The notes under the pieces are model-generated. The model was not told the DNA's origin. It did not search any database and saw only the letters and a program-made list of their open reading frames with translations. From NCBI RefSeq assembly GCF_044324785.1, contig NZ_CP172127.1: 64,000 nt of DNA; one strand, 5' to 3'. This document shows positions 60,011 through 60,651 of this stretch, one piece after another. This DNA comes from Escherichia coli. Its GTDB lineage: Bacteria; Pseudomonadota; Gammaproteobacteria; Enterobacterales; Enterobacteriaceae. Each line of letters opens with the position of its first letter. Position 1 is the stretch's first letter. Made by a program: the position numbers and the translations under genes.

Positions 60011-60072
60011 TGGCCGGTATTCTGAAACGGCGATTGTCGTGAGAACAGAATGGTTGCACCAGAATACAGATA

Positions 60073-60108
60073 TAAAAAAACCGACATGACAGTCGGTTTT
60101 TTATTTTT
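60073..60108 (+). terminator. Intrinsic terminator after selU
   Basis: CCGAC-ATGACA-GTCGG hairpin followed by TTTTTTATTTTTT. Confidence 0.7.
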
Positions 60109-60538
60109 TCCGCCCAAGACTTGGTGGTTCCGGGCAGAAATGAAACAGTCCTCATCTAGCAAGTGAATTATAAGTCAGGATGCCTACATATTCAAACAGC
60201 TATGTTGGCGATACAATCCCGACGCTAGTAGTGATACTGCCTCAAGGGATTACCGCAGTGCGGAAAAGTACTTTTAAGTCCTGGTCAGGATACAGGTGGT
60301 GCTGATTCTGGTGCTCTAATTTGGAGAGAGGCAGTCCTCATCTAGCACATGAAGAAAATCATAGTTACAGGCAACGTAAGGGTAAGCTGTGATTGTCTTT
60401 CTCCCTTAAGGGAGCAACGGATGAAAACTTTTCTCGATAAAGTTCTCATCGTTCTTATGGCGCTAATCGCGCTGCTGGAACTGAAAACCGACATGACAGT
60501 TGGTTTCATATTTATTGCCAAAATGCACACTGTTCATG

Positions 60539-60635
60539 CCAGATGCGGCGTAAACGCCTTATCCGGCCTACACAATCTTGCAAAATCAATATATTGCACG
60601 ATCCTCGTAGGCCGGATAAGCGTAGCACATCAGGC
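60539..60635. repeat. REP/BIME element (two inverted REP units)
   Basis: GCCAGATGCGGCGTAAACGCCTTATCCGGCCTAC and inverted GTAGGCCGGATAAGCGTAGCACATCAGGC. Confidence 0.65.
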
Positions 60636-60651
60636 AATCTAACGCCTGTCA

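Follow-up and report, generated by a model that had tools for sequence, protein, structure and literature searches.

A type I toxin-antitoxin module of the DinQ/AgrB family very probably occupies the interval between selU and ybbP (positions 60011-60651) in a 64,000-nt stretch of Escherichia coli DNA (RefSeq assembly GCF_044324785.1, contig NZ_CP172127.1), which is referred to below as the window. The module is dinQ-like (dql); its toxin gene is likely decayed and its antisense small RNA (sRNA) gene is apparently intact. The identification was based on three lines of evidence: the match of the sRNA to a known RNA family, the annotation of the toxin in homologous intervals of other genomes, and a collinear homology to the agrA-dinQ locus of strain K-12, to which the module is 69-73% identical across both genes over about 500 bp. 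The dinQ and dinQ-like (dql) gene family was defined by Kristiansen et al. 2016 (PMC5066626), and its members share an organisation in which the sRNA gene lies 5' of the toxin mRNA, is divergent from it and does not overlap it (T1TAdb; PMC8594479). The same layout was found in the window, where the sRNA gene runs from 60160 to 60072 on the minus strand, upstream of, divergent from and without overlap with the toxin open reading frame (ORF) that starts at 60421 on the plus strand. The sRNA side of the module comprises the following features:

60072..60160, minus strand: AgrB-like antisense sRNA gene of about 89 nt (Rfam RF02891 AgrB; homology to K-12 agrA/agrB)
60167..60195, minus strand: sRNA promoter TTGAAT-17-TATAAT, from a promoter scan, with 10 of 12 consensus positions
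60075..60102, unstranded: stem of a bidirectional terminator hairpin flanked on either side by A/T runs; left copy of repeat D1 (60077-60109)
60146..60167, unstranded: left copy of direct repeat D2, overlapping the single-stranded 5' antisense end of the sRNA and the -10 region

The sRNA gene was matched over the full length of the Rfam AgrB model (model positions 1-84 of 84; 60159-60072, minus strand) with 57.5 bits, compared with a gathering cutoff of 40, the score above which membership of RF02891 is called, and this was the single above-cutoff AgrB hit in the 64-kb window. The promoter ends at 60167, 7 nt upstream of the 5' end of the match, and transcription should therefore start at about 60160, that is, at the 5' end of the Rfam match. 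When aligned with K-12 agrA and agrB, the window sRNA was found to have the terminator stem AAAAAACCGAC/GTCGGTTTTTT and a middle stem-loop in common with them. These helices are kept in the consensus structure of six family members, with two compensatory pairs, and the terminator stem also occurs in plasmid Agr genes. In the alignment with intact alleles of the same interval, the sRNA gene and its promoter differ by one T in the T-run only, and this half of the module thus appears to be intact. The hairpin at 60075-60102 acts as terminator for the Agr-like sRNA and probably for selU too. The initial annotation of this DNA, which was made from the letters and their open reading frames, had described it as the selU terminator; the hairpin and its T-run are indeed present, and it is the attribution to selU as its primary gene that had to be changed.

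The antisense relationship between the two genes can be seen in a direct repeat, CAGTCCTCATCTAGCA, which had been noted in the initial annotation and is exact over 16 bp at 60146-60161 and 60332-60347. The repeat (D2) extends to 22 nt with 91% identity (60146-60167 and 60332-60353), and it is not due to chance, because its local-alignment score of 34 exceeds the maximum of 23 obtained in 300 shuffles (mean 15.6, standard deviation 2.0). The 16-bp repeat is the core of the predicted sRNA:mRNA pairing; the pairing stretch shows as a direct repeat in the DNA because the sRNA gene lies upstream of, and divergent from, the toxin gene. The duplex predicted between the sRNA 5' end and 60323-60346 has 24 bp, including a perfect Watson-Crick run of 15 nt (60332-60346), so that the complementarity between sRNA and toxin 5' untranslated region (UTR) reaches the at least 15 nt by which family members are recognised. 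A search for a longer stretch of DNA common to the sRNA gene and the toxin UTR yielded only the 22-nt core as alignable sequence, the remaining duplex using G-U pairs. The specificity of the pairing was assessed in a cross-matrix of six sRNAs and five toxin UTRs from the window locus, K-12 and three plasmids. For each sRNA, the UTR from the same locus was predicted to be the strongest partner, the pairing core was different at each locus, and the cognate pair of the window reached -55.5 kcal/mol, compared with -33 to -41 kcal/mol for foreign sRNAs. The locus-specific cores in these predictions point to a co-evolving antisense/target pair rather than to a recombination footprint.

The toxin side of the module, all on the plus strand, comprises the following features:

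60212..60217: TACAAT, a putative -10 element for the toxin mRNA, assigned from its position and from its counterparts, TATGAT in K-12 and TATAAT in plasmid loci
60236..60243: element 1 (ACUGCCUC), the partner of element 2 in minimum free energy (MFE) folds and the analogue of dinQ U16-C28 (PMC5066626)
60323..60346: antisense target in the toxin 5' UTR, within which fall element 2 and the greater part of the right-hand D2 copy (60332-60353)
60323-60335: element 2, within the antisense target
60392-60404: element 3, from MFE folds
60401-60414: hairpin (3:4) CUCCC-UUAA-GGGAG sequestering the Shine-Dalgarno (SD) sequence AAGGGAG at 60408-60414
60421..60483: codons 1-21 of the toxin ORF (MKTFLDKVLIVLMALIALLEL), the part homologous to DinQ, including the K13M change (ATG at 60457-60459; AAG elsewhere)
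60421..60642: 73-aa read-through ORF, stop codon at 60640-60642, made by a deletion

In homologous intervals of other genomes the toxin ORF is intact and encodes a 27-aa peptide, MKTFLDKVLIVLKALIALLELIRQFIE, which is annotated by RefSeq as dinQ, 'damage-inducible type I toxin DinQ'. This intact peptide scored 40.9 bits (E = 1.8e-10) with the NCBIfam DinQ model NF041472, for which the cutoff is 30 and K-12 DinQ scores 54.0, and it stayed under the cutoff of the DqlB hidden Markov model (HMM), with 24.5 bits vs 35. The 73-aa ORF of the window scored 21.1 bits with NF041472, below the cutoff, and was aligned to profile positions 1-17 of 22 only. By these scores, the toxin copy of the window is a truncated derivative of a true DinQ member. 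No family was assigned to the peptides in a Pfam scan, and a precomputed listing contains a faint match to PF28061 DinQ. The 73-aa ORF is nested in a 97-aa ORF starting at 60349, its last 52 codons consist of sequence from a hairpin copy and from a bacterial interspersed mosaic element (BIME), and its product is annotated as 'hypothetical protein' on 309 contigs. In the interval 60011-60651 no LexA box (CTGT-N8-ACAG, with up to one mismatch) was found, the box by which a dinQ gene would be placed in the SOS regulon. The K-12 LexA box TACTGTATGATTATCCAGTT aligns to a gap and degenerate sequence in the window, with the right half-site missing. As it lacks a LexA box, the selU-ybbP copy is not expected to be induced by the SOS response, and the name 'damage-inducible' given to it by RefSeq is probably wrong, having been inherited by homology only.

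It has been reported that the full-length dinQ mRNA of K-12 is translationally inert, with element 1 paired to element 2 and the SD locked in the hairpin 3:4, and that loss of the first 44 nt leads to pairing of elements 2 and 3 and frees the SD. When AgrB binds element 2, the SD hairpin is reported to close once more and cleavage by RNase III to be triggered (PMC5066626). Toxin and antitoxin activity have been demonstrated for K-12 DinQ/AgrB (PMC3567139, PMC5066626) and for DqlB/agrB of pOXA-48, the latter including compensatory mutations (PMC12365149). The mechanism of the window copy was transferred by homology from dinQ/agrB and dqlB/agrB, and its support consists of folding predictions. 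By analogy, the toxin mRNA would start near 60225, giving a 5' UTR of about 190 nt before the start codon ATG at 60421. The full-length mRNA would be translationally inert, with element 1 on element 2 and the SD hairpin closed; 5' processing would release element 2, which would pair with element 3 and open the SD hairpin; and binding of the sRNA to element 2 would close the SD hairpin again and create a substrate for RNase III. The 1:2, 2:3 and 3:4 pairings were each seen in MFE folds that take the start as proposed here. The transcript from about 60225 folds with the 1:2 pairing and the SD hairpin closed, the transcript from 60272 (aligned with dinQ +44) folds with the 2:3 pairing but keeps the GGAG of the SD bound to 60314-60317, and the SD hairpin forms again when the antisense target is blocked. 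By the same analogy, the peptide encoded at the selU-ybbP locus is presumed to be toxic and to be neutralised by the sRNA.

The toxin gene of the window was compared with the intact alleles, and two further features are needed to describe the differences:

60483..60484, unstranded: junction (+/-1 nt) of a 70-bp deletion relative to intact alleles such as PCN033, located right after codon 21
60484..60516, unstranded: right copy of repeat D1, a degenerate Agr terminator hairpin with 88% identity over 33 nt to 60077-60109

The deletion took the codons for IRQFIE, the stop codon, the block GGAAACGTA..TAAGG, which is invariant across the family in the alignment, and the toxin terminator GGCCGAAGGT-TTACC-ACCTTCGGCC. 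A terminator directly after the toxin ORF is thus present in the intact alleles and deleted in the window. Because the stop codon was removed, reading runs on into the hairpin copy and the BIME, and the 73-aa ORF is a fusion artefact. For this ORF, with its start at 60421 and its SD, both of which were found as described, the initial annotation had left the choice between a membrane peptide and noise. The peptide is small, hydrophobic and of membrane type, whereas its length of 73 aa results from the 70-bp deletion, and the homology to DinQ speaks against noise. In addition, codon 13 was changed from AAG to ATG (K13M, 60457-60459).

The junction 44-mer and the M13 allele were both absent from a set of 5,426 complete RefSeq E. 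coli genomes. Of these genomes, 1,261 carry the K13 allele, ATCC 8739 among them, and 1,325 the intact 3' end, always as a single chromosomal copy. The exact 73-aa product has been called on 309-314 public assemblies, most of them drafts, and one contig (L009) matches the window over 8,095 bp with 100% identity. These records show that the deletion allele is real and has become fixed in a lineage. Over 56000-63900 of the window (7.9 kb), identity to complete RefSeq E. coli genomes does not exceed 98.7%, which indicates that none of the complete genomes searched represents the source lineage; hundreds of assemblies, most of them drafts, nevertheless contain the exact SelU protein and the 73-aa ORF. 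In a rarer allele (P0002 / L011) the deletion is combined with K13, and this suggests that the deletion occurred first and K13M later.

Two other E. coli genomes carry different lesions of the same module. In strain CH10508 (L008, 4012-4615) the dql gene independently lost 108 bp between two imperfect 10-bp repeats, AGTCCTCATC and AGTTCTCATC; this deletion took part of the UTR, the SD, the start codon and the first codons, and dinQ is unannotated there. In AP027512 (L010, 2462-2695) the whole module is gone, one hybrid hairpin is left, and a 61-aa ORF, MVAPEYRYKKTDMTVGFIFIAK..., was created; recombination of the two 33-bp hairpin repeats with each other would have exactly this outcome.

These facts suggest that the toxin gene was probably inactivated in the window lineage, since the conserved tail and K13 were changed, the substitute hairpin is weak, and the gene was independently destroyed in CH10508. 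K13 and the IRQFI[E/D] tail are kept in the homologues of Escherichia sp. E1V33 and Photorhabdus khanii. The right copy of D1, which sits at the right end of the module and now takes the place of the toxin terminator, has a predicted free energy of -9.3 kcal/mol and an interrupted T-run, compared with -20.7 kcal/mol for the lost terminator. It is our guess that this copy is the remnant of a tandem agr-dql-agr arrangement, of which no example was found in the three plasmid loci inspected.

Several points weigh against the decayed module as the explanation of the interval. The sRNA and toxin transcripts of the window are predicted from its sequence. The promoter scan of the interval gave no consensus-like promoter on the plus strand, and the toxin promoter is weak and was placed by analogy. 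The predicted 'open' state is not clean, given the GGAG pairing that the processed MFE fold retains. The transmembrane helix (residues 1-21) is kept and K13M makes it more hydrophobic, so the fusion could still enter the membrane, and DinQ with a FLAG tag at its C-terminus is reported to be made all the same (PMC3567139). That the allele became fixed in more than 300 assemblies would fit neutrality as well as selection.

With these points in mind, it could be supposed that the module is still fully functional and that the 73-aa fusion is an active membrane toxin, or a neofunctionalised protein, under control of the sRNA. The fusion combines the DinQ helix, whose hydrophobicity is raised by K13M, with a second hydrophobic stretch, MTVGFIFIA; the UTR, the SD hairpin, the start codon, the antisense target and the sRNA gene are all intact in the window; and the deletion allele became fixed in at least 309 assemblies, with K13M arising later. 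However, the lost ELIR/IRQFIE tail is conserved from E. coli to Photorhabdus and the plasmid homologues, GAACTGATCCG being invariant in the alignment, and the family-invariant 3' block was lost together with the terminator, for which the substitute hairpin is a poor replacement by the energies given above. Transcripts ending at the substitute hairpin would be mRNA without a stop codon. Moreover, the DinQ HMM score lies under the cutoff, and the independent destruction of the gene elsewhere fits relaxed selection or selection against the toxin. A functional fusion is thus considered unlikely, though it is the most serious of the alternatives. A narrower proposal is that the deletion allele is alive in one of two ways, either (a) as a neofunctionalised 73-aa membrane protein 'improved' by K13M or (b) as an orphan antitoxin sRNA. 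In the second case the orphan Agr-like sRNA might shield the lineage from addiction to dql plasmids or cross-regulate the canonical dinQ. The cross-pairing predicted for such a role has -38 to -47 kcal/mol, compared with -52 to -64 kcal/mol for cognate pairs, and a longest perfect run of 6 nt, which speaks against the orphan antitoxin; the proposal as a whole is regarded as improbable.

The decayed dql module was then set against the reading of the initial annotation, in which the interval was a residual scar, either an ancestral empty site or a deletion scar, left where the RhsD element is absent or was excised, and the repeats would be recombination footprints. Much of the description underlying that reading was confirmed. 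K-12 MG1655 holds rhsD-ybbC-ylbH-ybbD-ylbI-ylbG between ybbP and selU, exactly at this junction; the selU-ybbP spacing, put at about 640 bp, is 641 bp (60011-60651); and the second, diverged hairpin copy and the BIME are where they had been seen. The Rhs element is absent as well: in the alignment to K-12, which had been proposed as the check, no Rhs core or flank sequence was detected in the interval by BLASTN at word size 7, the only homology being to the selU and ybbP coding sequences, and the best local alignments of the interval to the K-12 flanks were at chance level. It is the interpretation as a scar that failed, because the interval is occupied by the DinQ/AgrB module and has no sequence in common with K-12. 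At the selU end the K-12 homology stops within 2 nt of the stop codon, at the ybbP end it begins again 6 nt ahead of the stop codon, and the Rhs island alters the last selU codons. As they have no sequence in common, the Rhs island and the module are alternative occupants of the slot, neither derived from the other. The slot is also a multi-state hotspot, as a scar would allow, and the 33-bp hairpin repeat does recombine in one genome (AP027512); but this recombination removes the toxin-antitoxin module and not an Rhs element, and both repeats are intrinsic to DinQ/AgrB-family modules at unrelated loci and on plasmids. The scar reading is therefore rated as highly improbable.

The states of the slot were counted in the same 5,426 genomes. 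The K-12-type Rhs-side junction was found in about 2,900-3,060 of them (about 55%), the dql module with an intact 3' end in about 1,325, and the module-free junction GGGGGATTCTGTGCACGCTG in 1,122, a subset of 128 of which, including the type strain ATCC 11775, has a minimal interval of 58 bp. About 20% of the genomes have neither Rhs nor module, and the remaining module-free genomes have a BIME-only interval (NGF1, 240 bp) or an island of Hcp with three DUF2931 genes. The slot was likewise found in several states, including a truncated rhsD, in loci L002, L004, L005, L006 and L007, and the Hcp (tssD) + three-DUF2931 island, like the Rhs island, rewrites the last selU codons. The 58-bp allele of O18 was considered as a clean ancestral empty site and rejected, its right half ACCAGGTAGAAATAAACGGCTTTATCACATCAC being common to the end of the Hcp island. 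At least four states of this hotspot can be distinguished: Rhs element, Hcp-DUF2931 island, dql module, and none of these.

For the module itself, acquisition by insertion would be the more economical reading, considering that it is a discrete block of about 500 bp with close relatives on conjugative plasmids, at other loci and in other genera. A scan of 100,044 species genomes with a DinQ-family DNA pattern, in which E. albertii, E. fergusonii and E. marmotae were missed, gave 16 loci, and among them only that of Escherichia sp. E1V33 lies at selU-ybbP. In this genome (L027, 3274-3834) the module is intact and 99.5% identical, compared with 95% for selU and 97% for ybbP, which hints at a recent exchange of the module between lineages. 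In Photorhabdus khanii NC19 (L024, 6647-6787) a peptide ending in ...VKAFLDKVLIVLKALVALLELIRQFID is encoded that is nearly identical to the intact selU-ybbP peptide, the DNA being 76.5% identical to the selU-ybbP paralogue vs 72% to K-12 dinQ, and this similarity suggests horizontal spread of this dql subtype. Five more dinQ-family loci (L017, L020, L022, L030 and L031) lie on short contigs labelled Haemophilus sputorum, an 'uncultured bacterium' bin, Lachnospiraceae metagenome-assembled genomes and Chryseobacterium sp. 18061. Among these, L020 is 100% K-12 dinQ and L031 matches the same as the Citrobacter locus L029; all five look like enterobacterial contamination of the assemblies.

A chance resemblance, with a terminator hairpin next to a random hydrophobic ORF and nothing functional, is scarcely credible: the ORF is short, the Pfam scan gave no hit and the sRNA scores about half of K-12 agrA/agrB (57.5 vs 106-108 bits), but against this stand the full-model Rfam match above the gathering score, the collinear homology of about 500 bp to K-12 agrA-dinQ, the E value of 1.8e-10 of the intact peptide with the DinQ HMM, a correctly placed consensus promoter, a locus-specific sRNA/target complementarity, and a module 99.5% identical in another Escherichia species whose selU is only 95% identical.

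The extent of the module and its surroundings are given by the following features:

58916..60010, plus strand: selU/mnmH coding sequence, left flank, a 364-aa ORF annotated as mnmH/selU in homologous records
60652..63066, minus strand: ybbP coding sequence, right flank, convergent with selU
60025..60523, unstranded: module extent relative to module-free alleles, between ATTCTG and TGCACRCTGTTCATGCC, from the alignment and the raw sequences
60538..60635, unstranded: BIME of two inverted REP elements, with perfect 14-nt arms at 60558-60571 and 60607-60620

In the module-free alleles of strains O18 and NGF1, ATTCTG and TGCACRCTGTTCATGCC adjoin directly; the left boundary of the module is ambiguous by a few nt. 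The module thus measured is about 500 bp in the window and would be about 570 bp if intact. The BIME lies outside the toxin/sRNA module and is also present in the module-free NGF1 allele. Its sequence is multi-copy in every E. coli genome, with a median of 15 places per genome, and it has sub-threshold matches to the REP-derived Rfam families naRNA4 and ES036, for which the gathering score is passed in sister alleles. Just 3' of the selU stop codon there is an 8-nt inverted repeat, GTATTCTG (60018-60025) and CAGAATAC (60060-60067), overlapping a sub-threshold match to Rfam STnc370 (60049-60108; 36.9 bits vs 54). Apart from the features above, Rfam and ARAGORN gave just two in the 64-kb window, a tRNA-Arg (TCT) at 25507-25583 on the minus strand and a match to the sRNA STnc480 at 46984-47050 on the minus strand, with 87.1 bits (gathering score 72).

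The family has already been described and experimentally studied, the intact form is already in RefSeq, and the window holds a lineage-specific degenerate allele; the significance of the finding is modest, and nothing in it should surprise a specialist. At the level of annotation, it corrects the picture of the gap opposite the K-12 rhsD island, which carries a type I toxin-antitoxin module and is not empty. In the window lineage the remnant of this module is labelled 'hypothetical protein' by annotation pipelines, and for the selU-ybbP paralogue in general the RefSeq name 'damage-inducible toxin DinQ' is probably misleading. The alleles form a natural decay series, from the intact gene to the 70-bp deletion and to the deletion with K13M, with the 108-bp deletion and the whole-module excision elsewhere. 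This series should be useful for the study of how chromosomal type I toxins decay while the antisense RNA genes persist.

Among the known systems, the closest is dinQ-agrAB of K-12, located in the arsR-gor region (PMC3567139, PMC5066626). The two loci have in common the divergent layout with the sRNA upstream and without overlap, and a homologous sRNA with the same terminator stem and the same middle stem-loop. The 5' UTR blocks AAGTCCTGGTCAG, GGTGGTGC, GACAGGCA and GAGTAAGC are homologous, the SD-sequestering hairpin is found with the same four-element alternative pairing (here predicted), and the intact form encodes a 27-aa single-helix peptide with the core DK..IVL.ALIALLELIR. The window copy differs in its location at selU-ybbP, in its nucleotide identity of about 70%, and in having one agr copy vs two. 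Its antisense core is CAGTCCTCATCTAGC, for which poor cross-pairing with K-12 agrB and agrA is predicted. Furthermore, the selU-ybbP copy lacks the LexA box, and its tail is IRQFIE vs IRFLLQLLN in K-12, the 3' end of the toxin being deleted in the window.

The dql genes (dqlA/dqlB), including DqlB/agrB of pOXA-48, belong to the same family and have the same architecture (PMC5066626; PMC12365149). The plasmid loci of pRK1, p64EVA-5 and pM186-2 align with the module over the sRNA, the UTR, the ORF and the terminator, each with an Rfam AgrB match, and the plasmid homologues also have K or R at the position equivalent to K13. In contrast to these loci, the selU-ybbP copy is chromosomal and single-copy, and its peptide fails the DqlB HMM cutoff and passes that of the DinQ HMM.

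The K-12 RhsD element occupies the same slot between ybbP and selU without any shared sequence, and is thus comparable as an alternative cassette. The chromosomal hok/sok loci of K-12, according to what Pedersen and Gerdes reportedly described in 1999, were inactivated by IS elements, point mutations and rearrangements. The dql module resembles these decayed loci in that a chromosomal type I toxin gene was repeatedly inactivated across lineages while the locus persisted. It differs from them in belonging to another toxin family and in the kind of lesion, with small deletions (70 bp, 108 bp and the whole module) here vs IS insertion there.

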